A stretch of 64,000 bases of DNA from Dehalococcoidia bacterium (GCA_963665775.2 CAXXTF010000002.1:224001-288000), one strand, 5' to 3'. Numbered from the stretch's first letter, positions 13,469 through 31,614 are shown. The notes: a model not told the origin generated them from the letters alone. Numbers and translations are program-made.

Positions 13469-13505
13469 GTGACTAACATCGTCACAATGTGACGCGGCAC
13501 GTCAC
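13469..13505. promoter_or_regulatory. Two tandem GTGAC-N7-GTCAC palindromes (operator-like)
   Basis: 13469-13485 and 13489-13505, 20-bp period, upstream of the integrase operon. Confidence 0.5.
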
Positions 13506-14743: not shown

Positions 14744-15945
14744 GCGAGGACGAGGTCGGGCACCTGTTCAAGGCCCGAATCAACCAGCACTTTGCGAATC
14801 ACGCCGTCCATGCCCTCCTGATCCAAGAGGCAACCATTGCGGGTCAGAGTGAAAGTCCGCGTCCTGCCTCGACGTCGCTTGCCCAAGGGGCGGAAAAAGG
14901 CTTGGAGCTTGGCCTTGTCAACGTCCATCAGGGCTAGAGGGTATCGGTCGGTTTGGGGGCCGGGACTGGTCGCGAAGTACTTGTCGGCTGCGAAGATGAC
15001 CCCAAGCCCGGCAGGGCCACCGACCTGCAGGATTAGTTGTCGACCTCCGTCCCGGTCGCGTAGATGTATCCACTTCACTTCGATGCTCTCGAGGCCAGTG
15101 GATGCGTCGATAACGAACGAGAAGCCCGCTTCCTTCAAGAGATCGAGGCGATAGGCCCTTTCGGCGCCTGGGTCGGCCCCGAGGTCGATACCCAGAATCG
15201 TTCTGGCGAATATCTCTTGCAGGTCCCGGACCTTGTCCTTCGCACCCTGGCAAAACGTTTCGAGCATGTGGCGGTCAGGCGAATAGAAGAACAGGAGATC
15301 CGTCGCGGGTCGGTACTTGCGGCGCACTAGCTTCTCTTCCTCGTACTCAAGCATCGTCTGCCCATAGTCTTCGGGGTACGCGATGTATAGATACCCGGTG
15401 GATCGTTGCAGCCATTCCACATGGCAGTGTTGACCGCGACCCTCCCGCTGAAGTAAATACCCCGTTAGCTGTGCCGACAGGCGCTTCCACCCGGCTTCAC
15501 TCGTATCGGGCTCAGCTTCCGGTATGCCGCGTCTGCGACGCCAATACCGTGCGTTTAGGGTGTCGGCACCTCGAAAGCGGAGGATGTCGGCAAAGAGATC
15601 CTCACGGTTTACAAGGGCCCATATGGCAACGTCGTAGGCACCATCCAGATCAGTAAGCACTCGCGTAAGGTCTTCACCCTGGAAGCGCGCCTCCTCGTAG
15701 AGAAGCCGCATCCCTTCAACGTCCGCAAGTTCGTATACATCTTGGAGGTCTTGGTCTAGGTCTGTCTGCTGGGCGGATGGAAGTCGTTGAAGCGCATCGC
15801 AAAGGGCTTCGACATCCGCATCTTCTTGGTGGAGACAGGGGACGTCTAACAGGGGTCGACGTGCTCCGAAGTACTCGCGCACGAGCGCCCAGGAGATATG
15901 GTGGAGGACCCCTTTTCTAGAGAATGCGTAGCGGCGCTTCGACAT
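14740..15945 (-). CDS. Hypothetical protein
   Basis: 401-aa ORF with 4-bp overlap to the next gene. Confidence 0.75.
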   Translation of the reverse strand: MSKRRYAFSRKGVLHHISWALVREYFGARRPLLDVPCLHQEDADVEALCDALQRLPSAQQTDLDQDLQDVYELADVEGMRLLYEEARFQGEDLTRVLTDLDGAYDVAIWALVNREDLFADILRFRGADTLNARYWRRRRGIPEAEPDTSEAGWKRLSAQLTGYLLQREGRGQHCHVEWLQRSTGYLYIAYPEDYGQTMLEYEEEKLVRRKYRPATDLLFFYSPDRHMLETFCQGAKDKVRDLQEIFARTILGIDLGADPGAERAYRLDLLKEAGFSFVIDASTGLESIEVKWIHLRDRDGGRQLILQVGGPAGLGVIFAADKYFATSPGPQTDRYPLALMDVDKAKLQAFFRPLGKRRRGRTRTFTLTRNGCLLDQEGMDGVIRKVLVDSGLEQVPDLVLA

Positions 15946-16059: not shown

Positions 16060-16998
16060 TTAGAGGCCTATTGCCGCCGCCACCTTATCCCAGCCTCGAT
16101 CCTCCTGTCCCTCTAGCCGTCGCAAGTAAACCGTCGTCACTGCGAGCGAGCTGTGATCCAGGAATTGGCTGACGTCCTCCACAGATTCACCGGCGTCTCG
16201 TCGCAGCTTGGCAGCCGAGTGACGGAGGATGTGAACACCAGCGGGCGGGAGGTCGGCCTTCCGGAGATAGTACCGTAGGTTCCCATAGAAGGTTCCGCTG
16301 GTCAGGTCGTGGCCTCCTCTAGAGTGCTGCGAGGGCCACAGCGACTCCTCCGGACTCATCGTGTATAGATTCTTGCCCCAGGCTGCGAGGGATCGCTCGA
16401 TTGCCTCGAATGCTGGTCGTGGAAGTTCTCTCTTCCCCTGTTTGCCACCCTTGCCTCGGTAGGTGTAGAACAAGCCGCCTGTCTGCAAGATGTCCCCTGC
16501 CTTGAGGTTCAGCACCTCGGAGCGGCGGCGACCAGTCAGCGTCAGGGTCAGGATGATTGCCCGGTCGCGGAGGACAGCTGGGGAGTCCGGAATTACCTCC
16601 AGCAGGCGGCGTATCTCCTCGGCGCTCAGTCCTCTCGGAGGGCTGGGTGAGGTTCTTGGCCGCTCGATCTCGTCGCACGGGTTCGAGGATACGATCTTCA
16701 TGCGGATGAGGAAGCGGTAGAACGAGCTCACGCAGGCAAGCCGGGCACCCACTGTGATCGACGAGGGCTTCTTACCGGAAGGACCGATGCCGTGTGCGAA
16801 GCCGAACACCTCCTGGCTCGTGATCTCGTTTGGAGGCTTGCCCATCGAGCCAAAGAAGTGCTGCAGCATTCTGGAGTAGCTCTCTACCGTGCGACTGGAG
16901 CCACTGCGGCGTTCCTTCTCGGCGAGGAAGGCATAGAAGGCCTGCTGCCAGCCCGGCGTCCGCTCGTCGAAGAGTACAATATCGTCAGTCATGCTCAC
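16060..16998 (-). CDS. Tyrosine recombinase (Xer-like, SAM-like N-terminus plus catalytic domain)
   Basis: RDRAI..TGRRRSE (R), GKGGK (K), HILRH, LDHSS, TTVY (Y). Confidence 0.95.
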   Translation of the reverse strand: MSMTDDIVLFDERTPGWQQAFYAFLAEKERRSGSSRTVESYSRMLQHFFGSMGKPPNEITSQEVFGFAHGIGPSGKKPSSITVGARLACVSSFYRFLIRMKIVSSNPCDEIERPRTSPSPPRGLSAEEIRRLLEVIPDSPAVLRDRAIILTLTLTGRRRSEVLNLKAGDILQTGGLFYTYRGKGGKQGKRELPRPAFEAIERSLAAWGKNLYTMSPEESLWPSQHSRGGHDLTSGTFYGNLRYYLRKADLPPAGVHILRHSAAKLRRDAGESVEDVSQFLDHSSLAVTTVYLRRLEGQEDRGWDKVAAAIGL

Positions 16999-17037
16999 CT
17001 CTTGTTCTCAAGTCAGTAAGCATGTTCGCTCTGACGC

Positions 17038-17057
17038 ACACGAAGTCAAGTTAGTGT
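17038..17057. repeat. 7-6-7 site (ACACGAA-gtcaag-TTAGTGT) overlapping the recombinase -35 box
   Basis: 9-bp arms with 1 mismatch; TTGACT on the minus strand at 17044-17049. Confidence 0.6.
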
Positions 17058-18156
17058 GCACTACTGGTGCGGGTCTGGTGATTTGCGGACGGTGATAGAA
17101 TGCCCCTGGAATGCGCACGGGATCGCTCACGAGGGGAGGACACTCACGAGACGGTTGAACGCCGGCGCTACCAAATGGATCGTCCTTCCTCTGATGCTTA
17201 TGATCGCCGTCGCGGCGGCATCGAGCGGTTGTGCTGGTGGCGGCGATGAGGGCGGCCCTGCAGGTGGGACCCCGACTCTAGCTCCCACAGACAGCCCAAC
17301 GCCCGAATCTACGCTAACGTCCACGCCGACAGCTGCACCGACGATCTCGCCTTTCTCTTCACCGACCGCGACTCTCCAGCCGACATCTACCGCAGTTCCG
17401 CCGCTCGGCTTCACCATCCATTTCATCGACGTCGGCCAGGGCGATGCGACTCTTATTGTCACCGACACCGGTGAGACTTTCTTGGTGGATGGTGGGCGCA
17501 GTAAGACTCGGATCAGGGACCGTCTCGACCGACTTGGAATTGACGAATTGGACGCGATCCTGGTTACCCACCAGGACATAGACCACTTTGCGGGTCTGAT
17601 GGCGGTTCTCGAGGACTATGACATTGAACGGATCTACTGGAACGGCGCGCCAGATGGCTCGACCTTCGACAGCTTCATGACTCTATCCTTGGACGAGGGC
17701 GCGGAGATTTCCGTGATCGGCCGGGGCGACGTGGTCAAGCTGGGAGGAATGGAGATTCAGGTGCTCCACCCAGGTGGGCTAACGGGCGACAAGAACATCG
17801 ACTCCATCGTCCTTCTTGTCCAATGCGGGACAGTTGAGTATCTGCTGATGGGCGATGCGGAGATGGAGTCCGAACAGTCCATGATCGCGGCGGGAATGCT
17901 AGAGGATGTCGAGGTGCTAAAGGTGGGGCACCATGGCTCACGAACCTCAACGTCTGAGGCATTCCTGGATGTTGTCAGCCCCGAATATGCCGTAATCAGC
18001 GCGGGACTAAACAGCCAGTACGGCCATCCCCATCAGGAGACACTGGATGTGCTGAACTCAGCTGGCGTTCAGATCTTCCTTACTGACACGACGGAGGACC
18101 CAGACGGTGTGACGCTGACAACGGACTGCAGCGAGGTCTTGGTCGTTGAACCGTGA
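17056..18156 (+). CDS. ComEC/Rec2-like metallo-beta-lactamase-fold lipoprotein (start uncertain)
   Basis: FIDVGQGD, THQDIDH, KVGHHGS and YGHP motifs; P/T linker. Confidence 0.88.
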   Translation: MHYWCGSGDLRTVIECPWNAHGIAHEGRTLTRRLNAGATKWIVLPLMLMIAVAAASSGCAGGGDEGGPAGGTPTLAPTDSPTPESTLTSTPTAAPTISPFSSPTATLQPTSTAVPPLGFTIHFIDVGQGDATLIVTDTGETFLVDGGRSKTRIRDRLDRLGIDELDAILVTHQDIDHFAGLMAVLEDYDIERIYWNGAPDGSTFDSFMTLSLDEGAEISVIGRGDVVKLGGMEIQVLHPGGLTGDKNIDSIVLLVQCGTVEYLLMGDAEMESEQSMIAAGMLEDVEVLKVGHHGSRTSTSEAFLDVVSPEYAVISAGLNSQYGHPHQETLDVLNSAGVQIFLTDTTEDPDGVTLTTDCSEVLVVEP

Positions 18157-18160
18157 ACCA

Positions 18161-18180
18161 CCACTATGGCGCAATAGTGG
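18161..18180. repeat. 7-6-7 site (CCACTAT-ggcgca-ATAGTGG)
   Basis: Perfect 8-bp arms, 4 bp after the upstream stop. Confidence 0.7.
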
Positions 18181-18290
18181 TCGCCCGTTGAGGTAGTCCC
18201 GAATCCCGCACGGGCGGCTTCCGGATGTAGTGGCTGTACAGCGTTGAAGCGTCGTCGTACTCTCGATCTTTTCTGTTAATCTACATCTCG

Positions 18291-19091
18291 ATGGCTCAGC
18301 AACCCGATTATTCCCTCCTAGACCGTCCGGAGATCATCTCGATCATGTTTCACCCACGACCGGAATGGTCGAGCCCTCCCTCTGGTGCCACCGATCATCT
18401 GGTGCCTGTGGCAGAAGGCGTTGCAGTAGCCTGCCGCTTCTATCGCAACGATAAGGCAGCCCCCTCCATCCTCTACTTCCATGGCAATGGCGAGGTGGTG
18501 AGGGATCACGACTCTATCGCCCCTTTTTATCAGCGGTCGGGTCTCAACCTATTCGTCGCTGACTATCGCGGCTACGGCGCTAGCGGGGGCCTCCCCAACT
18601 TCTCAACGATGCTCTCCGACGCTCGTCGGATCTTCGAGGCCTTTCGGGAGACGCTGGTCACTGAAAGCTGTGATGCTGCTCACTTCGTCATGGGCCGCTC
18701 CCTCGGCGCACTATCGGCTGTGGAGGTGGCGGCCCATTTTGGCCGGCAGCTCCGGGGACTCATCATCGAAAGCGGCGCTGCTGGTACTAGCGGCTGGTCG
18801 CGTTTTGCTCCCTCGGACGGTGACCCCTCCGCATGGCAAGAACTGCAACGGCTGCATCTGGCGAAGGTACAATCCATCACTATTCCGGTTCTGTCCATCC
18901 ATGCTGAGCTAGATGAGCTCATTCCGTTGGCCCAGGCCGTGGAATTGCAAGAGATCATCGGGTCGAGCCAGAAGCAATTGATCGTCATCCCGGCCGCAGG
19001 CCACAACGACATCATGCATGTCGGAATGGAGCAGTACTTCACAGCTCTAAGGAAGTTCATCTTCGGGACTATGCGTGACCAAACCAGATGA
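18291..19091 (+). CDS. Alpha/beta hydrolase
   Basis: YFHGNGE, DYRGYG, GRSLG and AGHND motifs. Confidence 0.9.
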   Translation: MAQQPDYSLLDRPEIISIMFHPRPEWSSPPSGATDHLVPVAEGVAVACRFYRNDKAAPSILYFHGNGEVVRDHDSIAPFYQRSGLNLFVADYRGYGASGGLPNFSTMLSDARRIFEAFRETLVTESCDAAHFVMGRSLGALSAVEVAAHFGRQLRGLIIESGAAGTSGWSRFAPSDGDPSAWQELQRLHLAKVQSITIPVLSIHAELDELIPLAQAVELQEIIGSSQKQLIVIPAAGHNDIMHVGMEQYFTALRKFIFGTMRDQTR

Positions 19092-19106
19092 CGCCATTCC
19101 GAGCGC

Positions 19107-19126
19107 ACGCTATGACCTGTGAGTGT
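19107..19126. repeat. 7-6-7 site (ACGCTAT-gacctg-TGAGTGT), reverse orientation
   Basis: Reverse complement GGTGACACTCA-caggtc-ATAGCGTGCG matches the extended arms of the 4933 and 298 sites. Confidence 0.7.
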
Positions 19127-19138
19127 CACCTAGGCCGT

Positions 19139-19174
19139 TCGGAGATGCTGCACGGGACGATGCAGCATCTCCGA
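19139..19174. terminator. Perfect 14-bp hairpin
   Basis: TCGGAGATGCTGCA-N8-TGCAGCATCTCCGA; no U-tract. Confidence 0.45.
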
Positions 19175-19199
19175 GAATCACTGCCAAGGAGCCTCGCTC

Positions 19200-19272
19200 A
19201 TGCCTAATAAAGATCTCGAGAAACGCCTCTGGGACGCGGCCGATGAGTTGCTCGCAAACTCGAAGCTGAAGC
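19200..19272 (+). pseudogene. hsdM: N-terminal remnant of type I R-M methyltransferase
   Basis: AAGGAG RBS; LEKRLWDAADELLANSKLK is a typical HsdM N-terminus, then similarity stops. Confidence 0.65.
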
Positions 19273-19285
19273 GACTAAGTACGTT

Positions 19286-19507
19286 CTACGGCACAGGCTC
19301 CAGAATGACGACTGGGATCTCGCGCTTGGTGCGCGCCTGTCCGGTTCTGCGCCCTGGCGTGGATAGAAGCAGCCTCTGGATGGGTTCCGGACCGCTGGCG
19401 AAGGTGAAATCCCACATATGACCGTCGGTGCCGTCGCTCTCGAGATAGCGGGTGACGTGGTCCTTGACCCAGTCGCGGAGCAGAGTGGGAACGGAAGATT
19501 CAGGCAT
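19286..19507 (-). pseudogene. Internally deleted deazaflavin-dependent nitroreductase (DDN/Fqr) family gene
   Basis: YLESDG.DGH..LLL.T.GRRTG joined directly to the C-terminal T.REIPVVILEP. Confidence 0.65.
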
Positions 19508-19533
19508 CCGCTGCTTCCTTTCGGTCGGCGAGG

Positions 19534-22146
19534 CTAAGCCGTGGATCTGTCTGCGAACCACGACGCCAGCTGGGTCTGGTTCGTCTCAATCCACTTCACG
19601 TTCAGCCGGATGCGCTCCAGCGATTGCCAGACGGTCCTCTTCGCGGCGGGGACTGGGTGAGCCTCGAAGAACTCCTCGACCTCCTGAGCACGCTTCAATG
19701 TAGCGAAATCACCCGTGATGGCAACCAATCGCATGATTGCGAAGCCACCGCGGGCGTACCGTCGATCTAGCTCCGCCCAATTGTCCTTAGCCCACTGCCA
19801 CGTCAGATCGCGTCCGTGCCGGTTCGCGGCGGCCGACACGACCACCATCGGGGTATCCTGCGAGCGCACTTCGGGCGAGAGGGAGCGTTCCAGTGTCTCC
19901 TGGATCAACTCCGGTTGCCGGAAACGGGTGAGCGCCCCCAGGAGCCGCATGCGCTCCTCATGCAGGTTCGCCCGCTTCTCCAAATCCCATAGCCTATCGT
20001 AGGTGGAGCGGTCTCCCTGTTCGGCCGCCAGGTTGTATACCGTGCCCCGAATGTCCGGATGCAGGGAGCCGAAATCTCCGGTCAGCCGTGCGAAGCGCTT
20101 TTCGGCTTCAACCAGGATGTCACGGTCGCCGTAGGAGCCCGCTTGCCCTAGCACCGTGCTCCGTAGCAGGGAGTCCAGGTGCAGCTCTCCCGGCCGGGCA
20201 TCCCAGCCCACGCGCTGGATAATCCCGCTAAAGAGCGACCGGGCGAAGGCGTTAAACCGGGACAGGAATGGGGCATCGAGCAACAACGCCTCCAGTGAGC
20301 GCAGATTGCCCGATAGGTCGCTCCATACCGAGACGTCGTTCTCGTCCGTGTATGCCTCAATCAGCGAGAGATAGATTATGGCGGGAATGAAGCCGGCCCG
20401 CATGAGGGCGAAGGCATCGTTCTGGAGCCCGAGACGATCGGCGGCCGGCAGTTCCAGCGTCTTCACGGCCGAGCCCAGCCTATCCCACTCAGCCGGCGAA
20501 TAGTTCACGCGGAAGAAGCCGGTCTCCCCGGCGTTCACCTTGATCCAGTCCAGAGGATGTGAAGGCGGGTCGTTGCGCAGGCTCACCGATGCCCGCGGCC
20601 CGTCCATCAGCTGGGCGGCTGTCTCCGCTGAACGCGCCGTGATGACGCTGATCGGGACCTGCCAGGTAGTCTGGTCTTCGTCATCCTCGCTGAGGAGATG
20701 ATCATAGAGGAAGCGGCGCTGGGACAGGTTCAGACGCACCTCGGAGTCGCCTCGCTCGGCTTCGACTTGAAGCAGGGGGTAACCAGTCTGCTTGACCCAT
20801 GAGTCCATTATGGCGGTGACCGGCCTGGCAGAGGCTGCCTCCAGGGCGGCCCAGAGGTGCTCAGTCCGGGCGTTGGCATACTGGTGGGCGGCGAGGTAGG
20901 CGCGAAGTCCGTCGCGGAACGTTTCAGCACCCAGCATCTCCTCCAGCATGTGCAGGATGGCAGCCCCTTTTCGGTAGCTGATGGCATCGAACAGCTCTCG
21001 GATCTCGGCCGGATTTCGCACCTTGGCTTCGATGGGATGGGAGGCCCGAAGGCCGTCCAGGTTCAGCCCGACGTTGGTGTCCTCGTAGATGAACTGGGTC
21101 CACATGTGCCAATCGCGGAACAGATGATCGACGGCCTTGGTGCCCATCCAGGAGGCGAAGCTCTCATTTAGCCACAGGTCATCCCACCACTCCATGGTAA
21201 CCAGATCGCCGAACCACATATGCGCCATCTCGTGCGCTACCACTTCGGCGATGCGCTGGCGGGTGTTGGCGGCCGAGTTCGCGGGATCATACAGGAGAGC
21301 CGTCTCCCGATAGGTAATCGCGCCCCAGTTCTCCATCGCGCCAGAGGCGAAGTCCGGGATAGCGATGTGGTCTAGCTTGGACAGCGGGTAGACGATGCCG
21401 AAGTAGTCGTTGAGGTAGGCGAGCAGTCCGACTGAGGTCTCCAGGGCGAACCGTCCCTGCTCCTCACTGCCGCGGGTTGCCCATACCCTTACCACAGTGC
21501 CGTTCGCTGCTGTCGACTCCACCGAGGCGAAGTCCCCGACGATGAAGGCCAGAAGATAGGTTGACATCTTGGGCGTCTGAGCGAAGCGGACCGCCTTCAT
21601 GCCGCTTGGCAGGGGGGTCTCCCCCTCCACATTCGTATTCGAGATTGCGGCCAGATCGGCTGGGACGATCAGAGTCACGTCAAAGATCGCCTTGATGTCT
21701 GGCTCATCCCAGCACGGGAACGCGCGACGGGCATCCGTCGCCTCGAACTGAGTCGTCGCTATGAGGCGCTGCTGGCCCTGGCCGTCCGCATACTGACTCC
21801 GGTAAAACCCCCGGAGCTGGTCGTTGAGCGTGCCGCTGAACTGGATACTGAGCTTGGCGTCTCCCCTGGGAATCGTGTCGCTAAAGGAGAAGCTGACGGT
21901 CTCGTGGGTTTCGTCCAGGTCGATGCTTGTGGCTGACTGCGTTACGCCTCCTGTGGGGACGATCTGCGCGCCGGCGATCTGGAGCTCCGCCGCGTTGATC
22001 GTGATCTGAGTGGTGGGGGCTGCCACCTCTATGTCTATGATCTCCTCGCCCTTGAAGGAGAACCCTTTCAGATCCACAGTGAGAGTGAGGCTGTATCTTG
22101 TGGGGCGTGCGTCTGAGGGCAGCCGAAAGGGAGAGGGTGTGGCCAT
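19534..22146 (-). CDS. pepN: M1 family aminopeptidase N (puromycin-sensitive type)
   Basis: TQFE, GAMEN, HEMAH-x18-E motifs, ERAP1-like C-terminus. Confidence 0.95.
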   Translation of the reverse strand: MATPSPFRLPSDARPTRYSLTLTVDLKGFSFKGEEIIDIEVAAPTTQITINAAELQIAGAQIVPTGGVTQSATSIDLDETHETVSFSFSDTIPRGDAKLSIQFSGTLNDQLRGFYRSQYADGQGQQRLIATTQFEATDARRAFPCWDEPDIKAIFDVTLIVPADLAAISNTNVEGETPLPSGMKAVRFAQTPKMSTYLLAFIVGDFASVESTAANGTVVRVWATRGSEEQGRFALETSVGLLAYLNDYFGIVYPLSKLDHIAIPDFASGAMENWGAITYRETALLYDPANSAANTRQRIAEVVAHEMAHMWFGDLVTMEWWDDLWLNESFASWMGTKAVDHLFRDWHMWTQFIYEDTNVGLNLDGLRASHPIEAKVRNPAEIRELFDAISYRKGAAILHMLEEMLGAETFRDGLRAYLAAHQYANARTEHLWAALEAASARPVTAIMDSWVKQTGYPLLQVEAERGDSEVRLNLSQRRFLYDHLLSEDDEDQTTWQVPISVITARSAETAAQLMDGPRASVSLRNDPPSHPLDWIKVNAGETGFFRVNYSPAEWDRLGSAVKTLELPAADRLGLQNDAFALMRAGFIPAIIYLSLIEAYTDENDVSVWSDLSGNLRSLEALLLDAPFLSRFNAFARSLFSGIIQRVGWDARPGELHLDSLLRSTVLGQAGSYGDRDILVEAEKRFARLTGDFGSLHPDIRGTVYNLAAEQGDRSTYDRLWDLEKRANLHEERMRLLGALTRFRQPELIQETLERSLSPEVRSQDTPMVVVSAAANRHGRDLTWQWAKDNWAELDRRYARGGFAIMRLVAITGDFATLKRAQEVEEFFEAHPVPAAKRTVWQSLERIRLNVKWIETNQTQLASWFADRSTA

Positions 22147-22501
22147 AGGTTATCTTCCCTTAACTATACCGGTCATGCGAGAGGTAGTAGCCCGGGCCGC
22201 CGTGCGCGGACCCACCGCCTCGTGGGCTTTGTGCATCCTTGCGGCCCTCTCGGGTGCCTATGTTTCTAGCAGGCAGATTATATAGCGCCCCTCCGAAGCT
22301 GAGTCAATGGCGTGTCCCGACTCCTGCCACCGGTACATGTTGTACGTCGTGGGGCAGCTATTCCCTATCCAAAGTCAGGAATCCCTCTTAGCTCCAACGC
22401 AGCACCTGCCATGGCTGAAGCCAAAGATATGCGAAAGTGAGGCGGATCAAGTGGGTATAGACTATCCCGATTCCTGCCTTCATCGCTCGGTCGCGTACGA
22501 T

Positions 22502-22521
22502 GCACTATCCACACATAGTGT
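22502..22521. repeat. 7-6-7 site (GCACTAT-ccacac-ATAGTGT)
   Basis: Intergenic; matches consensus. Confidence 0.7.
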
Positions 22522-22582
22522 TGCTTCGGCGGTGAGCTGACCAGACTCGTCGGCGGCCTCGGAGGGTTTCTGGCTCTGAGCC

Positions 22583-23452
22583 TTAGCCGTCCGCTAAGAA
22601 CGCCTCCACTACCTCCAAGAAGCGGTCCAGCTGTTCGTGGTGGACCCAGTGACCAGCGCCCTCGATAACTGCCGAGCGATAGAAGGGGAGTGCGCGGGCT
22701 CTTGCCTGCCACTCCGGATGAGCGGACCAGCTCTCGCCTCCAGCTACGAGCAGCACGGGCGCTCGAATGTTGGCCCAAAGCTCCTCGCCCCCGTCAGGGT
22801 GCAGACCGCCTGCGACGAGGTAGTTATCAAACTTCCACGAGTAGGTGCCGTCTTCGTTTTTCCGGATGCCATGAAGGGCCAAATGGCGAGCGATACCGGG
22901 GCTGACTCGCGGGTTCACCTCAATTATTCGGCGAGTAGCTTCCTCTACGGAAACATGCCTGCGCAATCGTCGTCGCTCCCCGTGGCGCCTGCTGTCGATC
23001 CAATGCCGCATTCGTGCAGGGGGAGCCATGCCGTCCGGGCTGTGAGCGACCACGGGAGGGCCGAGTCCCTCGACCGCTATCACTTTCGACACTCTCTCCG
23101 GAAATACTCCGGCATACTGCAGGGCGATATTTCCGCCGCGGGAGTAACCCATGATGGCAAGTGAACCCTCAATCGTTTCCGCTAGAGTCGCAATGTCCAA
23201 GACAAAATCAGGTGTCCCGTAGGAGCCATCTGTAACCCACTCACTATCGCCATGACCCCTAAGATCGGGAGCGTAGATCGTATAGCGGTTCTTGAGCGTC
23301 CGCGCCACGAAATCCCAGCTTCTGCAGTGCTCCCTGCTGCCATGGATAAGCAGGAGCGGAGGGCCGCCGCTTTCACGCCATACCACGTAGTGCAGCCGGA
23401 GCCGCTGAGATTCATAGAAGTGCGACTCGGGCTCATCGAGGCCGAAGCGCAT
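22583..23452 (-). CDS. Alpha/beta hydrolase
   Basis: DLRGHGDS, GYSRG and AGHWVH motifs. Confidence 0.9.
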   Translation of the reverse strand: MRFGLDEPESHFYESQRLRLHYVVWRESGGPPLLLIHGSREHCRSWDFVARTLKNRYTIYAPDLRGHGDSEWVTDGSYGTPDFVLDIATLAETIEGSLAIMGYSRGGNIALQYAGVFPERVSKVIAVEGLGPPVVAHSPDGMAPPARMRHWIDSRRHGERRRLRRHVSVEEATRRIIEVNPRVSPGIARHLALHGIRKNEDGTYSWKFDNYLVAGGLHPDGGEELWANIRAPVLLVAGGESWSAHPEWQARARALPFYRSAVIEGAGHWVHHEQLDRFLEVVEAFLADG

Positions 23453-23525
23453 GGAATGTCACCCTAATCTTCATGTCATCATATTGATGGAAACGTCTGG
23501 GGTGGAGAATAACATATCTGGGGGG

Positions 23526-23545
23526 AGGCTATGCAGACATAGTGG
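23526..23545. repeat. 7-6-7 site (AGGCTAT-gcagac-ATAGTGG)
   Basis: Intergenic; CTAT-N6-ATAG core. Confidence 0.6.
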
Positions 23546-23744
23546 TCCCGGCTAACAGGCGGCGGCTCAGGAAAACGGTCCGTCTTTCCAGGGACAGCGA
23601 CACACTATCCGGTTGAAATGTAGCTGGGGCCTCCATGCCTAAACGATTGGCGGCCACTAAGACTAGATGCCGACTATGGGCGATTTCCGAACGTAGGGAG
23701 CGTGATCGCTACCGCGCCTCACGCTTCCCCCGAAGCGCGCCACA

Positions 23745-24950
23745 CTACGCCACCAGTCCCCGGTCCATCAACTCTCTGATCTGTCCCTCTGTATAGCCGA
23801 TCTCCGCCAACACCCCGGCAGTGTGCTGGCCTACCTCGGGGGCCGGAGTGGGAGTCGGGAAGGCCTGGCCAGCGACTTTTATCGGAGTGGCCACCATCTT
23901 TAGCTGGCCGATGCCGGGCCGTCGCTGGTCTACGATCATCTCTCTGGCCTTGAAGAGCTCAGTGTTTTCGACCTCGTCCCGCGGATAGTACGGTGCCCCG
24001 GCGATGTTGTAGTCGACAAAGATCTCCGTCCACTCTTCCCTCGTCCTCGTGCGAAACACTTTGACCAGTTCTTCGCGCAGCTCACCATCGGCGGAGGCCA
24101 GCTCCATGCGGCTCGCGCTCCAATCACCCCGACTGGCTAGGTCCGGCCGCCCCACGACCTCACAGAAATGCTCCCAGAAGTGCTGCTCGATGGACTGAAG
24201 CAGGATCCACCCGTCGTCTTTCGTCTGGTAGTATCCGGCCTTGGCCGATCGTCCTGCCTTCGAAGCGGGCGAGCCGAGATCCGCGCCGTTCAGGACCGGG
24301 AGCATCTCCAGCCCAAGGGCCATGAGGGTTGAGTCAGCGCAGGAGATGTCGAGGTAGGCGCCCTCCCCGGCGTCCCGGGCCTGGATGAGCGCTGCACATA
24401 TGCCGAGCGCCGCCATCCAGCCACCGTAGATACCGCCGCGGGGATACGAGGAGGTCGGGCGGTCCTGGACGGCACCATCGTCCCCGGAGGAGGGCGGAGG
24501 GGCCATGCCGGTAACGGCATCGAAGCCGCCGCCATGGCTGGCCAGCTGGGCGAAGGGTCCGGTCTGGCCGAATCCGGTTACCGAGCAGTAGACGATCCTG
24601 GGATTGACGAGGCTAATCCGGTCATAGCCCAGACCGAGCTTGGCCAGTGCGTCAGGCCTAGCGCTTTCCACGAATACATCGCAGCTGCTGGCAAGATCGT
24701 AGACGACCTGCCGCCCCTCATCCGTCCGGAAATCGACGGCGATATCGCGCTTGTTCCGGTTGAAGCAGAGGAACGAACGCATCATTCCGGCCAGCTCGCC
24801 GGTGCCGCTTCCGGTTCTCATGTAATCGCCGATCGTGGGCTCCTCAACCTTGATCACGTCGGCGCCCATATCGGCGAGAAGCATCGTCGCTAGGGGACCG
24901 GGCAACAGTCGCGAGAGATCAAGAACCTTGATCCGATTGAGCAGACGCAC
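23745..24950 (-). CDS. CaiB/BaiF family III CoA-transferase
   Basis: VLDLSRLLPGP, GADVIKVE, NRNKR and GFGQTGP motifs. Confidence 0.92.
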   Translation of the reverse strand: MRLLNRIKVLDLSRLLPGPLATMLLADMGADVIKVEEPTIGDYMRTGSGTGELAGMMRSFLCFNRNKRDIAVDFRTDEGRQVVYDLASSCDVFVESARPDALAKLGLGYDRISLVNPRIVYCSVTGFGQTGPFAQLASHGGGFDAVTGMAPPPSSGDDGAVQDRPTSSYPRGGIYGGWMAALGICAALIQARDAGEGAYLDISCADSTLMALGLEMLPVLNGADLGSPASKAGRSAKAGYYQTKDDGWILLQSIEQHFWEHFCEVVGRPDLASRGDWSASRMELASADGELREELVKVFRTRTREEWTEIFVDYNIAGAPYYPRDEVENTELFKAREMIVDQRRPGIGQLKMVATPIKVAGQAFPTPTPAPEVGQHTAGVLAEIGYTEGQIRELMDRGLVA

Positions 24951-25168
24951 AGGTGACCTCCTTGGTTCATCACGGCAAGGCAGAGTGCAGCGAAATCGTA
25001 CCGGCGCCTCGGTGGCAGGCCAACGGACGTCGATAGCGCAGCCCCCCGGCGTCCGGCGCGATGACCATGCGGACGCACCGCACGTTCGAGCCGATGCGCC
25101 GAGAATATGCTAGGTATGGTGACCTGTCAACCGAAGCCTGCTTGGAGCGGCAGAGCCTGGCTGTTACC

Positions 25169-25188
25169 ACACGATGAAGTCATAGTGC
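25169..25188. repeat. 7-6-7 site (ACACGAT-gaagtc-ATAGTGC)
   Basis: Intergenic; matches consensus. Confidence 0.65.
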
Positions 25189-25276
25189 GGGCCTCGGCCC
25201 CGCCATACTAATTCAGCGTTGAGGATCGCTATCAAGCCATGTATGATGGCCTCGACACTCGAACAAGGCACTGGCC

Positions 25277-26014
25277 ATGAATGCCCGCAGTCCGCTGACC
25301 GCAGCTGTTTTAGCGCTAATACTTATTGTTATTGGGGCTTGTGGGGGTAGCGAAAGGGCAGCTACGATCCTGCCAACGGCAACGCCGGTCGAAACCAGCA
25401 CGGCTCCAGCTGAGCCAACAGCCAACCCCAAGACCTCTAGCCCCGCTGCAACTGCTGTCGAAGGTGATGAGCTTGTTGAGCGGCTACCGGAGGCACTCCT
25501 AGCTTTGGAGGATATGCCGGCAGGGTGGACAGTGAGGGTGATAGTCGACGATGAAGAGGACGACGGCTCGACCATTTGCGGCGTGGCCTCCGGGCAGTTC
25601 TCCAGAGACGCATTCGCACGTTTCACTGCCGATTTCCAGAAAGCTGAGTTCGGGCCTTTCTTGGATCAAGTGGTCGATTACTTTCCAGAGGGCGAGGCGG
25701 AGCGGGTCATGGCGGAGTTCAGTGATGCCTTTCGCTCGTGTACTGAATGGACTGTGATCGAAGAGGATGGGACGGAAACCACCTGGCGGCTCGGTCCCCT
25801 ATCGTTTCCCAAGATCGGTGATGAGACGTTCGCATTCCGAATGTCCACGGTGACGTTCCTCGGCGCTGTGGAATTGGATTTCATTACTTGGCGACGGCAG
25901 GACATTGTTGTCGTGATAGCGCATACTAGCATCGGATTTGAGGGCATCGATGGAGAACAAACCGAGGCATTCGTGCGGCGCGCAGACGAGAAGTTGAGAG
26001 CTTTCTTGGATTAG
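25277..26014 (+). CDS. Hypothetical lipoprotein
   Basis: IGAC lipobox, P/T linker. Confidence 0.8.
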   Translation: MNARSPLTAAVLALILIVIGACGGSERAATILPTATPVETSTAPAEPTANPKTSSPAATAVEGDELVERLPEALLALEDMPAGWTVRVIVDDEEDDGSTICGVASGQFSRDAFARFTADFQKAEFGPFLDQVVDYFPEGEAERVMAEFSDAFRSCTEWTVIEEDGTETTWRLGPLSFPKIGDETFAFRMSTVTFLGAVELDFITWRRQDIVVVIAHTSIGFEGIDGEQTEAFVRRADEKLRAFLD

Positions 26015-26105
26015 GCGCCGCAGCGTTCCTCACCTCGTCTGGACATCAGCTTTCCCTCTGTTGCGGCCCCGCCGCCGTGTCGCAGCATGGAGTTTGAATG
26101 GGCCC

Positions 26106-26125
26106 CCACGATCGACACATCGTGG
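26106..26125. repeat. 7-6-7 site (CCACGAT-cgacac-ATCGTGG)
   Basis: Perfect 9-bp arms with 6-bp spacer, between convergent genes (could also act as a terminator). Confidence 0.55.
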
Positions 26126-26205
26126 GGTTACCACACGGCGCGAGCCAGGCCGGATGACATCCCTCGGCCGGCCACGCCAGGTCTGCGGCGTTACGCGCTT
26201 GCTGA

Positions 26206-27360
26206 TTATTGCCACAGTGCTAGGAGCGTCTGTTCCAGCTCCACCTTTTCCCGCCGATAACGCTTGGAGGGGGGCTCCAGCGTTACTCTGGGGCCCGGCA
26301 TGCCGTAGAAGTTCCCCGAGGCATATGCGGCCATACCGTCGCCCACCTCTACATAGCAGAAGCCATGGCCCGTGAACCGGGTTGCGGTGCTCTCTCCTGC
26401 GATCTCTGCCGCTACGTTCGCCGCCACCACGCGGGCCTCCTCGTCCGCAAACACTCCGGCCTTGGGAAGGTACATGCCGATCGGCAATCTGACAGCCGTC
26501 ACGTCGCCGATGGCGAAGACCCCAGAGTAGCGCGTCTGGAGGGTTGTCGGGTCAACGGGGACCCAGCCTGAAGCGTCGACGAGCCCGCTCTCTCGCACCG
26601 CCGCCGGCGCGATGTGTGGCGGCACGCCCACCAGCAGGTCGAAGGAGGTGTCGTCTAACTCGAATAGAATCCTTCTGGAGGCGGGATCTATCTTCATCGG
26701 AATCTGCTCCCAGTGAAGCTCAATGTCCCGCTCTTCAAGCATCTCGATGAGGGCGGTTCCGAGATTGGCGCCGGCTACGAGCATCGGCTGGTCCTCGGGG
26801 GTGTAGAGGGCGATCTCTGTCCGCTGCCGGACACCCCGGTGGCGAAGGAGCGATTCAATGAGGAAGGCCGCTTCATAGGGCGCGGACGGGCAAGAGAAGG
26901 GGGTTCTGCTTACGAGGACGACGATGCGACCGCCGTTGAACTCGTTGAGCGTTCGCTGTATCTGCAGGGCGCCATCGCTCTCGTATAAATTGAGCGCCGA
27001 TTCCGCGAAGCCTGGAACCGCCTGGGGATTCGTCTCGGTCCCCAGGGCCAGGATGATATAGTCGCCCTCCAGGGTGCCGGCTGTGGTCTGCACGGTCTTG
27101 GCAGCCGGGTCTATCGCCTGAATCTCCGCCTGAACCACTTCGATGCCGGTGCTCGCCAACCGTGATAGCTCGCGTTCTCCGTCCCTCGGATCCTTCCTCT
27201 CCCCTGTCATGACCCATAGGTTGGACATGCAGAGCGAGAAGGCGTGCCTCCTTTCGATCACCACTATGCGGTGCTCGGCCGGCGATAGCCTTCGCAGGTG
27301 GCTGGCCGCCGTCAGGCCACCGATGCCGCCGCCCAAGACTAGTATCGTTTTCCTGCTCAT
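26206..27360 (-). CDS. Sulfide:quinone oxidoreductase-like FAD-dependent oxidoreductase
   Basis: GGGIGG, CPSAPYE, FAIGD, PKAG and GFCY motifs. Confidence 0.85.
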   Translation of the reverse strand: MSRKTILVLGGGIGGLTAASHLRRLSPAEHRIVVIERRHAFSLCMSNLWVMTGERKDPRDGERELSRLASTGIEVVQAEIQAIDPAAKTVQTTAGTLEGDYIILALGTETNPQAVPGFAESALNLYESDGALQIQRTLNEFNGGRIVVLVSRTPFSCPSAPYEAAFLIESLLRHRGVRQRTEIALYTPEDQPMLVAGANLGTALIEMLEERDIELHWEQIPMKIDPASRRILFELDDTSFDLLVGVPPHIAPAAVRESGLVDASGWVPVDPTTLQTRYSGVFAIGDVTAVRLPIGMYLPKAGVFADEEARVVAANVAAEIAGESTATRFTGHGFCYVEVGDGMAAYASGNFYGMPGPRVTLEPPSKRYRREKVELEQTLLALWQ

Positions 27361-27370
27361 TGCCGCCTCC

Positions 27371-27694
27371 CTAGCCGAAGGTGAGGACGCGGTCCGCCTC
27401 CTCCGTAAGTCGCACCAGGTCATCCATAGTGGACATGGGACACACGGCGCTTGCGTCCATCTGACGCAGGCGCAGGCACGTGCCACAGCTCAGGGCGACG
27501 CCCCCCAGCTCGTCGAAGCGCAGCAGCAGCCTTTGGACATCCATGCGTTCGTCCCCGATGCCCTCTATCTCGACGGCCGGTCCCAGGAGGAAGACGTTCG
27601 CCTCATGGCCGCGAGACAGGGCGGCCGAACCGAAGCGAAGGGCGTTCCACACCGTCTCAGTTTCGGTCGTATTGATCACCAGCAGGTACTTCAT
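27371..27694 (-). CDS. DsrE family sulfur-relay protein
   Basis: VFLLG..V, CGTCL and C-terminal ADRVLTF motifs. Confidence 0.85.
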   Translation of the reverse strand: MKYLLVINTTETETVWNALRFGSAALSRGHEANVFLLGPAVEIEGIGDERMDVQRLLLRFDELGGVALSCGTCLRLRQMDASAVCPMSTMDDLVRLTEEADRVLTFG

Positions 27695-27904
27695 GGCACC
27701 TCTCCCTTCGCGCTGGCGGACCAGCCCCTGCAATAGAGCAAATCGACCTTCATGTTCACCTCCATAAGTTTAGGTATACCGCTACCATGATATCCCTATG
27801 GCAAGGCTGCTGTGACCAATCCGTGACGTGTCGCTTGACGAGCCGAGGGGCGATAGCCTAATTTACGCATCGACTTCTCAACTAATTTGGGGGGTATGTC
27901 TCTT

Positions 27905-28084
27905 ATGGGCAAGATGGTCGAATGCAACAAGGTGAACCCAGCCAGCGGCTGCAGCGACGTCGTTCGCGGTGAGACTGAGGAGGAGCTCCTGAAGAACGCG
28001 GCGGAGCACGCGAAGGAGCACGGGCTCGTAGAGGTAACGCCAGAGCTTATGGAGAAGATGAAGGCCAACATCGAGAAAGAGTAA
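27905..28084 (+). CDS. DUF1059-like small metal-binding protein (start approximate)
   Basis: C...GC...RGETEEEL....EHAKEHG. Confidence 0.8.
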   Translation: MGKMVECNKVNPASGCSDVVRGETEEELLKNAAEHAKEHGLVEVTPELMEKMKANIEKE

Positions 28085-28219
28085 CACCCGCGAGCCGCTC
28101 GGGCTCCCGAAAATCCCAACGCTATCAAACCTATGTTAGCGCCCGCCTGGTATGTCACGGCAGGCTGGTTAAGTCAGCCACCACGGCCTGGCTAATTTCA
28201 ACGATAAAGAGGGGATGGC

Positions 28220-28239
28220 TTACCATTCAGCCATAGCGT
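28220..28239. repeat. 7-6-7 site (TTACCAT-tcagcc-ATAGCGT)
   Basis: Shares 19 bp with the site at 298. Confidence 0.7.
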
Positions 28240-28376
28240 GCGGTCCGGCTGACACTGCTTACAGTGAGCATGCTGCGCGAGACAGAACGAGGGAGCCTGT
28301 GACCTTTGACGGGTGCCTCAGGCAGGACTAGACTTGCCTCACGGCAGGGCCGCGCCGAGAAATTAGGAGGTACTCA

Positions 28377-28592
28377 ATGGCTCATCGGTTTGAGCATAAA
28401 GGATTTCAAGTCGAGATAGATCCTGACCGTGAGGGAGGACCGCGGATGAGGATTGCGGATAGCGAGATTCCCGTCCGACGGATTGGCAACCAGTTTATCA
28501 CCCCCTTACTTCCATATGTGAAAGCGGAGGACCTGACTGATTTAGCGAGGGCAGTAGTTGAGCAGTCCCGAGACTTCGAGACTCATGAGTGA
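28377..28592 (+). CDS. Tyrosinase cofactor (MelC1/caddie-like), minimal
   Basis: AGGAGG RBS; directly upstream of tyrosinase; I....I.V.R....F.T..LPY.......LARAVVE pattern. Confidence 0.65.
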   Translation: MAHRFEHKGFQVEIDPDREGGPRMRIADSEIPVRRIGNQFITPLLPYVKAEDLTDLARAVVEQSRDFETHE

Positions 28593-28614
28593 CAGGCAGT
28601 AGTCCACGGAGGAG

Positions 28615-29529
28615 ATGAAGATGGTGATCCGAAGAAACGTGAGACACTCTTCCGATTCCGAAAAGCGAGAGTTTATTGCTGCCCTGCTAAGTCTCAAAGT
28701 TGAAGTCGGACCTGATGGGATTAGTACTTATGATCGGCACACACGCTGGCATATGGAAGCCATGGCCAAGGCGACTGATCCCGCGAGGCCTTGGTGGGAG
28801 CAGAACCAACCGCATCGAGGTCCAGCGTTTCTACCATGGCACCGGATGTTTCTTCGCTCGGTAGAGTGGGAACTCCAACGCGTTTCTGCAAACCCTAATC
28901 TAGGCATCCCTTATTGGGACTGGACTCAAGATGCGGCTAATCCAGCAAGTTCTCCTATTTGGGACCCCAGCCTCCTGGGTGGCAACGGCGACATATCGAA
29001 TAACGATGTCGTGACGACAGGCCCTCTCTCGAATCCGCTAACCTGGACAACTGTTCAACCACAGATCTCGCAACAGGGAGACCTGCTCGGCTTTCAGCCA
29101 GGAGGAGGTCTTCGCCGCAGATTTACCAATTCTATCGGTGTCCCCACGCAGGACGAAGTTGACCAGGTGCTCAATATGAGCGTCTATGATACGGACCCAT
29201 TGGATTCAACATCCACAGGCAGCTTCCGCAACACACTGGAGGGTTGGGTAGGGCCAGGCCTTCACAACCAAGTGCATGCATTCGTTGGTGGAGACATGAT
29301 GGCAGGCACTTCCCCCAACGATCCCGTCTTCTATCTGCACCATTGCCAGGTAGACCGAATTTGGGCCATCTGGCAGCGACGCTTTCCGAATAATCCCTAC
29401 ATTCCAGAAATTGGCGCCTCTGCTGGTCACAACCTTCGTGATCCCATGTTCCCATGGGATGGCCAGGCAACCAGCAAGCTGGTGACTCCTGAGGGGATGT
29501 TGAATCTGGGGAGTGTCATATACGCATAG
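28615..29529 (+). CDS. Tyrosinase (MelC2-like)
   Basis: HRGPAFLPWHR (CuA), PYWDW, HNQVH...SPNDPVFYLHH (CuB). Confidence 0.95.
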   Translation: MKMVIRRNVRHSSDSEKREFIAALLSLKVEVGPDGISTYDRHTRWHMEAMAKATDPARPWWEQNQPHRGPAFLPWHRMFLRSVEWELQRVSANPNLGIPYWDWTQDAANPASSPIWDPSLLGGNGDISNNDVVTTGPLSNPLTWTTVQPQISQQGDLLGFQPGGGLRRRFTNSIGVPTQDEVDQVLNMSVYDTDPLDSTSTGSFRNTLEGWVGPGLHNQVHAFVGGDMMAGTSPNDPVFYLHHCQVDRIWAIWQRRFPNNPYIPEIGASAGHNLRDPMFPWDGQATSKLVTPEGMLNLGSVIYA

Positions 29530-29677
29530 CATACGGTTAATAGGGGCGCCCACGATGGCTGGCAACCTGACCTGGTTGGACACGGACGCAATCTTGGCAC
29601 GCCTCACCGGGCCCCACCACCTTAGCCCGTTGTCGGCCGAAGAAGAACCATGTTCCCTCCCGCACAGCGCCCGGGAG

Positions 29678-29697
29678 ACGCTATTAACTCATAGTGT
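29678..29697. repeat. 7-6-7 site (ACGCTAT-taactc-ATAGTGT)
   Basis: Counterpart of the 4933 site. Confidence 0.75.
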
Positions 29698-31591: not shown

Positions 31592-31614
31592 CGCCTGTCG
31601 TCTCTTGGCCGGGC

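Follow-up and report, generated by a model that had tools for sequence, protein, structure and literature searches.

A 312-aa Xer-like tyrosine recombinase gene (rec; 16060-16998, minus strand) lies within a 64,000-nucleotide stretch of an uncultured Dehalococcoidia genome (GCA_963665775.2 CAXXTF010000002.1:224001-288000; hereafter the window), where it is read divergently from a row of short palindromic sites that separate unrelated cargo genes. The protein has Pfam matches to Phage_integrase (5.1e-19) and to the N-terminal SAM-like domain Phage_int_SAM_1 (1.7e-05), and in an alignment to XerD (1a0p) the R..HxxR..H..Y residues, including GRRRSE, HILRHS, DHS and the terminal Y, are in register. 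It falls below the NCBIfam cut-offs for XerD (110.2 bits against 329.6), XerA (110.3 against 220) and XerC (102.3 against 335.15), and far below those of the integron-integrase models TIGR02249 (52 bits against 265) and PRK15417 (32.2 against 435). A paralogue with 91% identity is found at C1:766491-767420 and a relic at C2:60738-60909 (C1 and C2 coordinates refer to this genome, G000), each next to a site with the spacer cttgac. Downstream of rec is a conserved backbone (11572-15945, minus strand) that encodes an unknown protein of 401 aa (14740-15945), an unknown protein of 413 aa (13502-14743) and a large serine recombinase (11572-13188). Pfam and PHROG searches were made for these proteins, and no PDB relatives were found. 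Members of these families, although not always all three, follow rec in the loci L013, L014, L016, L019, L020 and L023 and others from other genomes.

The cargo of this element, which we refer to as element B, occupies nine slots between 17056 and 29529: an MBL protein (17056-18156, plus strand), a hydrolase (18291-19091, plus), an M1 aminopeptidase (19534-22146, minus), a second hydrolase (22583-23452, minus), a CoA-transferase (23745-24950, minus), an unknown gene (25277-26014, plus), an SQR-like gene (26206-27486, minus) with DsrE (27371-27733, minus) and an unknown gene (27796-28158, minus), and a tyrosinase (28615-29529, plus). Pfam searches mostly confirmed the names given to these units in the preliminary description, namely MBL, two alpha/beta hydrolases, M1 aminopeptidase, CoA-transferase III, SQR-like flavoprotein, DsrE and tyrosinase, while the proposed hsdM relic and DUF1059 were not confirmed.

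The preliminary description listed 11 sites with the consensus RCRCTAT-N6-ATAGYGY, nine in element B and two in a second element, A, and all 11 are present at those positions. The proximal site (17038-17057, ACACGAA gtcaag TTAGTGT, spacer class CTTGAC, PWM score 18.4) lies about 40 bp upstream of the rec start codon. The identical site lies beside all three rec copies in the genome and at -59 to -66 in the metagenome loci L064-L066 and L129. It is followed by sites of class GGCGCA (18161-18180, score 19.5), CAGGTC (19107-19126, score 16.4), CCACAC (22502-22521), GCAGAC (23526-23545), GAAGTC (25169-25188, score 21.2, which holds the same position in the inverted array C2:970010-981397), CGACAC (26106-26125), GGCTGA (28220-28239, TTACCAT tcagcc ATAGCGT) and GAGTTA (29678-29697). 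The last of these forms the border between the array and the conserved backbone, as backbone-side homology to 4929-5231 (89%) and to C1:53802-53966 starts here. In element A, sites of class GGCTGA (298-317) and GAGTTA (4933-4952) bracket an ABC-transporter cargo (522-4312), whereas the equivalent slot in element B holds the tyrosinase gene. Two sites of a further class, CCGGCA, were missed in the preliminary description (7365-7384, score 21.6, and 34994-35013 in the element B backbone). These lie inside the 3' ends of the ParB-methylase genes, and the status of the first is uncertain. The four identical copies in the genome are all genic, and two of them (C2:970010 and C2:983922) share both flanks.

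Three of the 11 sites match the consensus exactly (298, 22502 and 29678), against 0.00 expected in 100 shuffles, while the others have one mismatch (4933, 25169), two (18161, 19107, 23526), three (17038, 28220) or four (26106, CCACGAT cgacac ATCGTGG, PWM score 12.6). It is important to note that at up to three mismatches the count within the window alone is not convincing, with 20 observed against 12.35 +/- 3.40 expected and 3 of 100 shuffles reaching 20. The weak sites therefore stand only because they carry recurrent spacer classes in the expected order; site 26106 matches in class and position those in element A and at C1:782059, and site 28220 has the same class and order as site 298. Across the 2.35 Mb genome there are 39 hits at up to one mismatch against 0 in the reversed genome, and 67 sites with a PWM score of 16 or more against 1. 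By crude gene calls, 53 of these 67 sites are fully intergenic in a genome that is 83% coding, and the sites cluster in islands. Information content is confined to the two 7-bp arms (consensus ACACTAT-N6-ATAGTGT), which are nearly identical on both sides, with outer positions carrying 0.09 bits or less. The earlier statement that the spacer ends in C in at least one orientation of every site holds for 89 of 103 high-scoring sites.

The sites are linked to the recombinase gene well beyond this genome. In 25 loci from other genomes that carry rec homologues, 48 sites were found against 1 control in 414 kb, almost all on the 5' side of rec. Similarly, 63 metagenome loci carry 39 sites in 191.5 kb upstream of rec against 3 in 147.9 kb downstream, with 0 in the controls. 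Relatives with rec average 5.8 motif hits (n=6) compared to 1.8 in those without (n=34; one-sided Mann-Whitney p=2e-4), although the genomes are kin and not independent. One relative, G017, has 9 motif hits but no rec was found in this genome, which is 86% complete in about 340 contigs. In addition, several site clusters in G000 have no rec copy nearby, so that action in trans must be assumed.

The 6-bp spacers fall into recurrent classes, 39 among 103 sites. Upstream of rec these classes appear in the same order and orientation in every array compared (46 of 46 order comparisons), in a sample that covers relatives, named MAGs and 63 metagenome contigs. All 16 classes seen twice or more have one orientation relative to rec, and this was repeated in the metagenome loci. 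For instance, GGCGCA is always second from rec and always in the same orientation (12 of 12 in metagenome loci), and CAGGTC, the most widespread class, has the same orientation in 15 of 15 and 8 of 8 cases, with flanks unique on both sides in 16 of 18 sites. The PWM was trained on G000 sites, so classes with diverged arms are under-sampled in other genomes. While the order of the sites is kept, the DNA between equivalent sites is not: 141 of 149 equivalent-slot comparisons show under 10% tblastx cover, including all four slots between the two G000 copies whose recombinases are 91% identical. In locus L028 one slot is empty, with 77 bp between the sites.

Breaks in homology fall on the sites. 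Of 416 low-copy self-HSP ends, 22 lie within 25 bp of a site, against a mean of 2.07 and a maximum of 6 in 200 randomisations, and recent duplicates (at least 97% identical) end at the sites. The 1048-bp hydrolase cassette is duplicated at 96.7% identity exactly from site to site (22503-23544 and C2:981415-980368), with unrelated flanks; its ends are the sites at 22502 and 23526, and the left arm of the latter, AGGCTAT, is shared with C2:980367, a chimera of two known sites. Either flank of a class can be replaced independently, as C2:977217 has the left flank of C1:313251 and the right flank of C1:683709. Furthermore, each arm tends to travel with its own flank, which would place the crossovers in the spacer. 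Arms follow their own flank in 12 of 15 informative pairs, with 2 contrary and 1 tie, and arm differences total 11 on the shared side against 30 on the unshared side. However, over all 27 one-flank pairs this test is not significant (19/8 against 12/15, Fisher p=0.098), and the pairs are not independent. The sites do not track promoters: 13 lie between convergent genes, 14 between divergent genes and 29 between tandem genes, close to the genome's own mix of 276, 329 and 958.

Our results support the proposal of the preliminary description that a recombinase encoded by the element shuffles cargo genes as cassettes at these sites, as each in silico check proposed there came out in favor. Two refinements are needed. 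The spacers are slot-specific and their order is conserved, so the data fit exchange of cargo between equivalent sites of related elements better than integron-style capture at one site, and catalysis by this recombinase is inferred from linkage and site architecture only. With moderate confidence, we interpret the region from 16060 to 29697 as the variable arm of an integrative element found in Dehalococcoidia and other Chloroflexota, in which rec is read away from a row of about ten 20-bp core-type sites, each with two 7-bp inverted arms around a 6-bp overlap region. As every site in a row has a different overlap sequence, sites within one row are probably incompatible with one another and the row would be stable in cis. 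A site could pair with the same-overlap site in another copy of the element, whether co-resident or incoming, so that one crossover joins two elements at that address and a second crossover at another address resolves them. The net result would be that the block of cargo between the two addresses is swapped while the order of addresses is kept. That overlap identity is required and that exchange proceeds by two crossovers are both inferences, and no recombination event was observed in the assembled contigs, which cannot show rare junctions. Two classes in the same row, CCACAC and CGACAC, differ by a single base, so orthogonality may be leaky, and the interpretation does not explain the origin of new cargo.

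Other explanations appear unlikely. The host XerC/XerD pair, or another host recombinase, might act on sites that mimic the lineage's own dif, with the 312-aa recombinase serving only the element, for example in dimer resolution or integration. In favor of this possibility, inverted arms and a 6-bp spacer are the Xer plan, the best profile hits of the enzyme are XerD, XerA and XerC, site clusters exist away from any rec copy, and the genome encodes other Xer-like tyrosine recombinases, for example at C2:638035 and C2:1181640. However, the polarity of the sites to the 5' side of rec in 25 plus 63 independent loci and the relation between motif counts and the presence of rec among relatives speak against it, as do the 7-bp, nearly identical arms, which are unlike the 11-6-11 XerC/XerD boxes. 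No canonical ATAA-N6-TTAT core exists in the genome, and no host dif could be identified for comparison. Integron-like traffic, in which each cassette is a circle with one site that inserts into and excises from any compatible site while the order is inherited by descent, is about equally unlikely. The divergent recombinase gene with a first site 40-105 bp upstream resembles an integron, and a few arrays hold same-class or near-same-class sites in direct order around a segment (cttccg twice in the array G031_3; caggtc and gaggtc in G042), which fits single-site insertion of circles as well. Yet if a site belonged to its cassette, site class and cargo would travel together, whereas the classes are kept while the cargo on either side is replaced independently, and neighboring sites almost always differ in spacer.

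It is similarly doubtful that the sites bind a non-recombinase protein of the element, such as a repressor, a partition protein or an insulator, with cargo replaced by homologous or illegitimate recombination that uses the conserved 20-mers as microhomology. A 7-6-7 palindrome suits any dimeric DNA-binding protein, and the G000 elements encode ParB-domain methylases and HTH proteins. In contrast, 13 of 56 intergenic sites lie between convergent genes, the spacer, which such proteins usually do not read, is kept per slot across genomes whose flanks are unrelated, and ParB-methylase genes are not found near rec in the loci from other genomes, whereas the sites are. The hairpins are not unusually stable (z from -0.7 to -2.6) and no T-run was seen after them in the flanks inspected, so they are not terminators. 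Least likely is that the large serine recombinase acts on the sites. It is part of the conserved backbone in many loci, but several loci with sites (L018, L021, L022, L024, L026 and L027) have no serine recombinase within 10 kb, and large serine recombinases would be expected to use sites of about 40-50 bp with a 2-bp crossover.

A further possibility, which we put forward only tentatively, is that one recombinase recognizes one arm sequence while a set of mutually incompatible 6-bp overlap sequences acts as slot addresses, such that arrays are inert in cis but can swap any slot in trans with any related element. This would be a third way, beside integrons and pdif modules, in which site-specific recombination builds gene-cassette platforms. 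It appears widespread in uncultured Chloroflexota (3569 recombinase clusters at E<=1e-40) and also occurs in one Thermoleophilia MAG. If our interpretation holds, abundant soil and sediment Chloroflexota carry a cassette platform built on a principle so far known only from engineered systems. This would explain how metabolic genes such as hydrolases, oxidoreductases, transporters and sulfide-oxidation genes are reshuffled in a phylum where mobile elements are poorly known, and would give the old idea of modular exchange at fixed boundaries a defined molecular mechanism. It would also supply one recombinase with many candidate orthogonal 20-bp sites, directly useful for multiplex genome engineering.

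Literature searches found no description of such a system, and the known systems closest to it differ in several respects. In the pdif (Xer/dif-like) modules of Acinetobacter plasmids (PMC7399989, PMC5790767, PMC12907356, PMC11705084), short double-stranded sites with inverted arms and a 6-bp spacer also bracket unrelated gene modules, and the same module is found in different contexts, as seen here for the duplicated hydrolase cassette. Here, however, a dedicated recombinase gene sits at the head of the array, the arms are 7 bp and nearly symmetrical rather than the distinct 11-bp XerC and XerD boxes of 28-bp sites, and the sites form long ordered rows with slot-specific spacers on integrated chromosomal elements of Chloroflexota. 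Integrons likewise have a tyrosine recombinase gene read divergently from highly diverse cargo with a first site just upstream, but the enzyme described here is far below the IntI cut-off, the sites are 20-bp duplex-type sites rather than folded attC sites, judged by their size and hairpin energies without an attC model, and the cargo genes lie on both strands, with 2-4 genes in several slots, rather than as mostly promoterless, co-oriented cassettes. Modular exchange in lambdoid phages and the variable-region hotspots of SXT/R391 ICEs also combine a conserved backbone with fixed positions at which unrelated cargo alternates between relatives, although those exchanges probably proceed by homologous or Red-like recombination at linker homologies and appear to involve neither palindromic core sites nor a linked tyrosine recombinase. 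The logic proposed here is that of recombinase-mediated cassette exchange with heterospecific lox or FRT sites, a laboratory design for which our searches found no natural counterpart. In both, one arm type carries several distinct and presumably incompatible spacers, and exchange between like-addressed sites would swap the segment between them and keep the order, which is what the conserved order with unrelated cargo looks like.

The pattern RCRCTAT-N6-ATAGYGY occurs exactly three times in the window, against 0.00 expected, and the other eight sites listed in the preliminary description are present with 1 to 4 mismatches. At up to 3 mismatches, however, the window count is not significant by itself (20 against 12.35 +/- 3.40). 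Thus, the motif was tested on the whole genome (G000; two contigs, C1 and C2, totaling 2.35 Mb, in which the window is C2:224001-288000). In G000 there are 39 hits at up to 1 mismatch, against 0 in the reversed genome. With a weight matrix of the two arms, which was trained on this same genome, 67 sites score 16 or more, against 1 in the control. Information content lies only in the two 7-bp arms (0.9-2.1 bits per position), while the five positions outside carry 0.09 bits or less. A crude self-trained gene caller (2179 genes, 83% coding) placed 53 of the 67 sites as fully intergenic, with 3 overlapping a gene end and 11 inside genes, although these gene calls are rough. The sites cluster in a few islands, at C1:767-782 kb and 814 kb, and at C2:218-259 kb (overlapping the window), 306-354 kb, 918-1025 kb and 1430-1441 kb.

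The genic sites include the two cggcaa-class copies and four identical ccggca-class copies in ParB-methylase genes. In the window, the genes at 7306-8550 and 34944-36221 (minus strand) encode ParB_N plus N6_N4 DNA-methylase fusion proteins, and each carries the identical site-like sequence TCGCTAT ccggca ATAGTGT inside its 3' end. Two of the four genomic copies (C2:970010 and C2:983922) share both flanks, and the sequence may represent either a working site or a conserved coding motif. A further 20-mer resembling the motif (GCGCTATATSGACATA..) recurs once per genome in many relatives (G002, G003, G017, G018, G023 and others; loci L045-L056). Its flanks show that it lies in a coding region, since the conservation pattern between L055 and L056 reads R-Y-I/M-D-I. 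It is not a recombination site or dif, and is a source of false positives for loose motif scans.

The 6-bp spacers are not random but fall into recurrent classes, used in both orientations. Within G000 these include CGACAC (10), GAGTTA (8), GCAGAC (6), GGCTGA (6) and CAGGTC (4), and among 103 high-scoring sites in all sequences examined there are 39 classes. In 89 of the 103 sites the spacer begins with G when read from at least one side, indicating that the proposal that every spacer ends in C in at least one orientation describes a strong tendency and not a law.

Window 16060-16998 (minus strand) encodes a 312-aa tyrosine recombinase (gene rec) with an N-terminal SAM-like domain. Its best profile matches are XerD, XerA and XerC, all far below the curated cut-offs, and the integron-integrase model scores 52 bits against a cut-off of 265. 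The catalytic Arg, His-x-x-Arg, His and Tyr align with XerD 1a0p. The genome holds one 91%-identical paralogue (C1:766491-767420) and one relic (C2:60738-60909), and all three are followed, about 40 bp upstream of the start, by the same site ACACTAA-cttgac-TTCGTGT. The recombinase family is large (3569 clusters at E<=1e-40), and where it is named at all the names are generic: XerC, XerD or tyrosine recombinase. A second family of tyrosine recombinases (337-389 aa, about 26% identical to rec) sits beside or between sites at C2:1438444-1439457, C2:341890-343059 and C2:359617-360378, with the one at C2:1438444 lying between a GAGTTA site and a CCACAC site. Each has a copy of a ~106-bp repeat (82-85% identical) close by, and a further copy of this repeat lies about 2 kb before the window, at C2:221813-221918.

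Downstream of rec lie two conserved proteins of unknown function (401 and 413 aa; window 13502-15945, minus strand) and a large serine recombinase. One or both of the unknown proteins recur beside the recombinase gene in loci L013, L014, L016, L019 and L023, and they are possible accessory factors. Pfam, NCBIfam and PDB profile searches with these proteins gave nothing useful, and the only hit was phrog_37634, of unknown function, for the 401-aa protein. The far side of the array abuts a backbone with a ParB-domain DNA methylase and primase or primase-polymerase genes. The whole is therefore an integrative element with a variable arm. Additionally, an IS element with an rve-family transposase (window 30695-31971; ORF 30728-31591, minus strand) is inserted just beyond the distal site, and more than 15 near-identical copies (98-99.7%) occur across both contigs. 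A ~150-bp repeat at C2:218132-218280, about 5.8 kb before the window, has at least seven copies at 79-82% identity on both contigs and may be a miniature mobile element.

A self-comparison of the genome revealed homology blocks that start or stop at sites. Window 22503-23544, which carries the alpha/beta hydrolase, is 96.7% identical to C2:981415-980368, with both ends at sites and nothing shared beyond them. Four further blocks each have one end at a site: C2:218803-221778 = C1:782060-785035 (97.9%), C1:776554-778331 = C2:194822-196617 (97.9%), C2:353961-355531 = C2:978814-980383 (98.2%) and C1:326433-331167 = C2:1430277-1435011 (99.9%). Overall, 22 of 416 ends of low-copy self-matches lie within 25 bp of a site centre, whereas random positions drawn near sites give a mean of 2.07 and a maximum of 6 in 200 trials. 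A second copy of the SQR/DsrE region (window 26341-26575 and 27633-28014 versus C2:1022346-1022957) is 97% identical but lacks about 1 kb of the middle, and is a deletion derivative of this cassette's content elsewhere in the genome. In assembled contigs from the runs X10 and X13, breaks occur at 22519-22548 and 23505-23534, the borders of the duplicated hydrolase cassette. This is expected from the two genomic copies and says nothing about ongoing recombination. In the marine-sediment run X1, pieces cover the aminopeptidase cassette with few differences, while several neighbouring cassettes have no cover.

Within a spacer class, either flank can be replaced independently. For instance, site C2:977217 has the left flank of C1:313251 and the right flank of C1:683709, three GCAGAC sites share the left flank and differ on the right, and 16 of 18 CAGGTC sites share neither flank with any other. 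Among site pairs that share exactly one flank, 15 are informative. In 12 of these the arm next to the shared flank is the more similar one, in 2 the reverse holds, and 1 is a tie, with arm differences totaling 11 on the shared side against 30 on the unshared side. A cruder test over all 27 one-flank pairs is not significant (p=0.098), and only the informative pairs show the trend. Site C2:980367 is a clear chimera, as its left arm and flank match window site 23526 and its right arm and flank match C2:353958. These patterns place the crossovers between the arms, in the spacer.

Reading away from rec in the window, the classes are CTTGAC, GGCGCA, CAGGTC, CCACAC, GCAGAC, GAAGTC, CGACAC, GGCTGA and GAGTTA, and then the backbone. 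The C1 copy has the same order but lacks GAAGTC, C2:970010-981397 has the same order inverted, and element A, a second element of this region, shows the last three classes. In contrast, the contents of the slots differ. The CTTGAC to GGCGCA slot holds MBL in the window and an unknown 334-aa protein in C1, and the GGCGCA to CAGGTC slot holds a 266-aa hydrolase, an unknown 344-aa protein or, at C2:918 kb, a CoA-transferase. Between CAGGTC and CCACAC lie the M1 aminopeptidase or, in C1, four genes including cohesin- and dockerin-like proteins. The CCACAC to GCAGAC slot contains the hydrolase cassette (two copies) or, in C1, a beta-lactamase-family protein, and is empty, at 77 bp, in locus L028. 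The GCAGAC to GAAGTC slot holds a CoA-transferase, or pirin plus glyoxalase, and the GAAGTC to CGACAC slot an unknown 245-aa protein or a thiolase-like protein. Between CGACAC and GGCTGA are found an SQR-like protein and DsrE, a Kelch protein, or a molybdopterin oxidoreductase plus two further genes. Finally, the GGCTGA to GAGTTA slot holds tyrosinase, an ABC-transporter binding protein and two permeases, a PQQ-propeller protein, a PKD-domain protein, or two others. The hsdM relic and the DUF1059 protein named among the cargo in the preliminary description were not confirmed.

Homologues of rec at 75-78% identity occur in 6 of 40 relatives of the same order. They also occur in 25 loci of named MAGs, which are Dehalococcoidia, other Chloroflexota, and one Thermoleophilia MAG at 66-68%. 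Those loci hold 48 sites against 1 control in 414 kb, nearly all on the 5' side of rec. In the Thermoleophilia MAG, an Actinomycetota MAG (loci L029 and L030; JAOSKU010000001.1), the nearby sites have arms that lean to GCACGAT/ATCGTGC, which suggests transfer across phyla and possible covariation of arm and enzyme. One 36% homologue lies on a Candidatus Chlorohelix plasmid, with one weak site-like match 13.7 kb away, and there is none in phages; these results were not informative. Relatives with rec have on average 5.8 motif hits and those without have 1.8, while the reversed-pattern controls give 0.7 and 1.3. It is important to note that these genomes are kin and not independent, and that the relative G017 has 9 hits with no rec found in an 86%-complete assembly.

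The arrays were extended in three complete chromosomes and all 23 arrays were anchored on rec. Every comparison of the order of shared spacers is concordant (46 of 46), and each of the 16 classes seen at least twice has a single orientation relative to rec, although many of the comparisons involve related genomes and are not independent. Lineage-specific classes also keep their order, as G042 and G043 share GGCCCG, GCGTGC, GGGAAG, GTGTGG and CAGGTC in that order. The DNA between equivalent sites is unrelated: of 149 slot comparisons, 141 have under 10% of the shorter segment covered by tblastx hits, 5 have 10-50% and 3 have 50% or more. Furthermore, an independent sample of 63 metagenome contigs with the 5' part of the gene repeats the picture, with 39 sites in 191.5 kb upstream, 3 in 147.9 kb downstream and 0 in the controls. 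In this sample CTTGAC is in the plus orientation in 7 of 7 cases, CAGGTC plus in 8 of 8, GGCGCA minus in 12 of 12 and CCCCAC minus in 4 of 4.

Arms that bind a dimer, a 6-bp central region and breakpoints inside that region are the signature of a tyrosine-recombinase core site. Because each row contains different spacers, sites of one row probably cannot complete strand exchange with each other, and the row would be stable, as inferred from the general requirement of tyrosine recombinases for overlap identity. Although no recombination was observed, the most likely mechanism is that sites with the same spacer in two copies of the element can recombine, and that two such events at different addresses swap the block between them and preserve the order of addresses. 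This accounts for the conserved order and orientation, the unrelated cargo, the independent replacement of either flank, the empty slot, and the travel of each arm with its flank. It does not explain how new cargo first acquires flanking sites. Direct repeats of one class around a segment (G031_3 and G042) suggest that single-site insertion of circles also happens at times.

Host Xer proteins acting as in pdif modules cannot be excluded, but this fits the polarity and co-occurrence with rec less well. A host dif was not found, and no ATAA-N6-TTAT core, the short motif that probably marks such a site, exists in the genome; dif has been predicted in three Dehalococcoides genomes (Kono et al. 2011, PMC3025954). 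An integron-like model in which each cassette owns its site conflicts with the retention of a class when the cargo on either side changes, and the serine recombinase is absent from several site-bearing loci. A pure binding-site role conflicts with spacer conservation across unrelated flanks and with sites in convergent gaps. Similarly, the sites occupy convergent, divergent and tandem gaps in about the genome's own proportions, and an operator function was therefore rejected as the main role. A terminator function was also rejected, since four sites folded as RNA give -9.8 to -14.5 kcal/mol, with z from -0.66 to -2.63, and no T-run was seen after them in the flanks examined.

The system works like pdif modules, in that duplex Xer-type sites bound the modules, and it looks like an integron, in that a divergent recombinase gene heads an array, but it fails tested defining features of both. 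Cassette platforms built by site-specific recombination are already known, and pdif and integron papers were recovered in our literature search, yet in that search we found no description of this motif, of ordered spacer classes, or of such arrays in Chloroflexota. While we place these arrays among such platforms, there is a real chance that they are of a distinct kind. The closest functional analogue is engineered cassette exchange with heterospecific lox sites.
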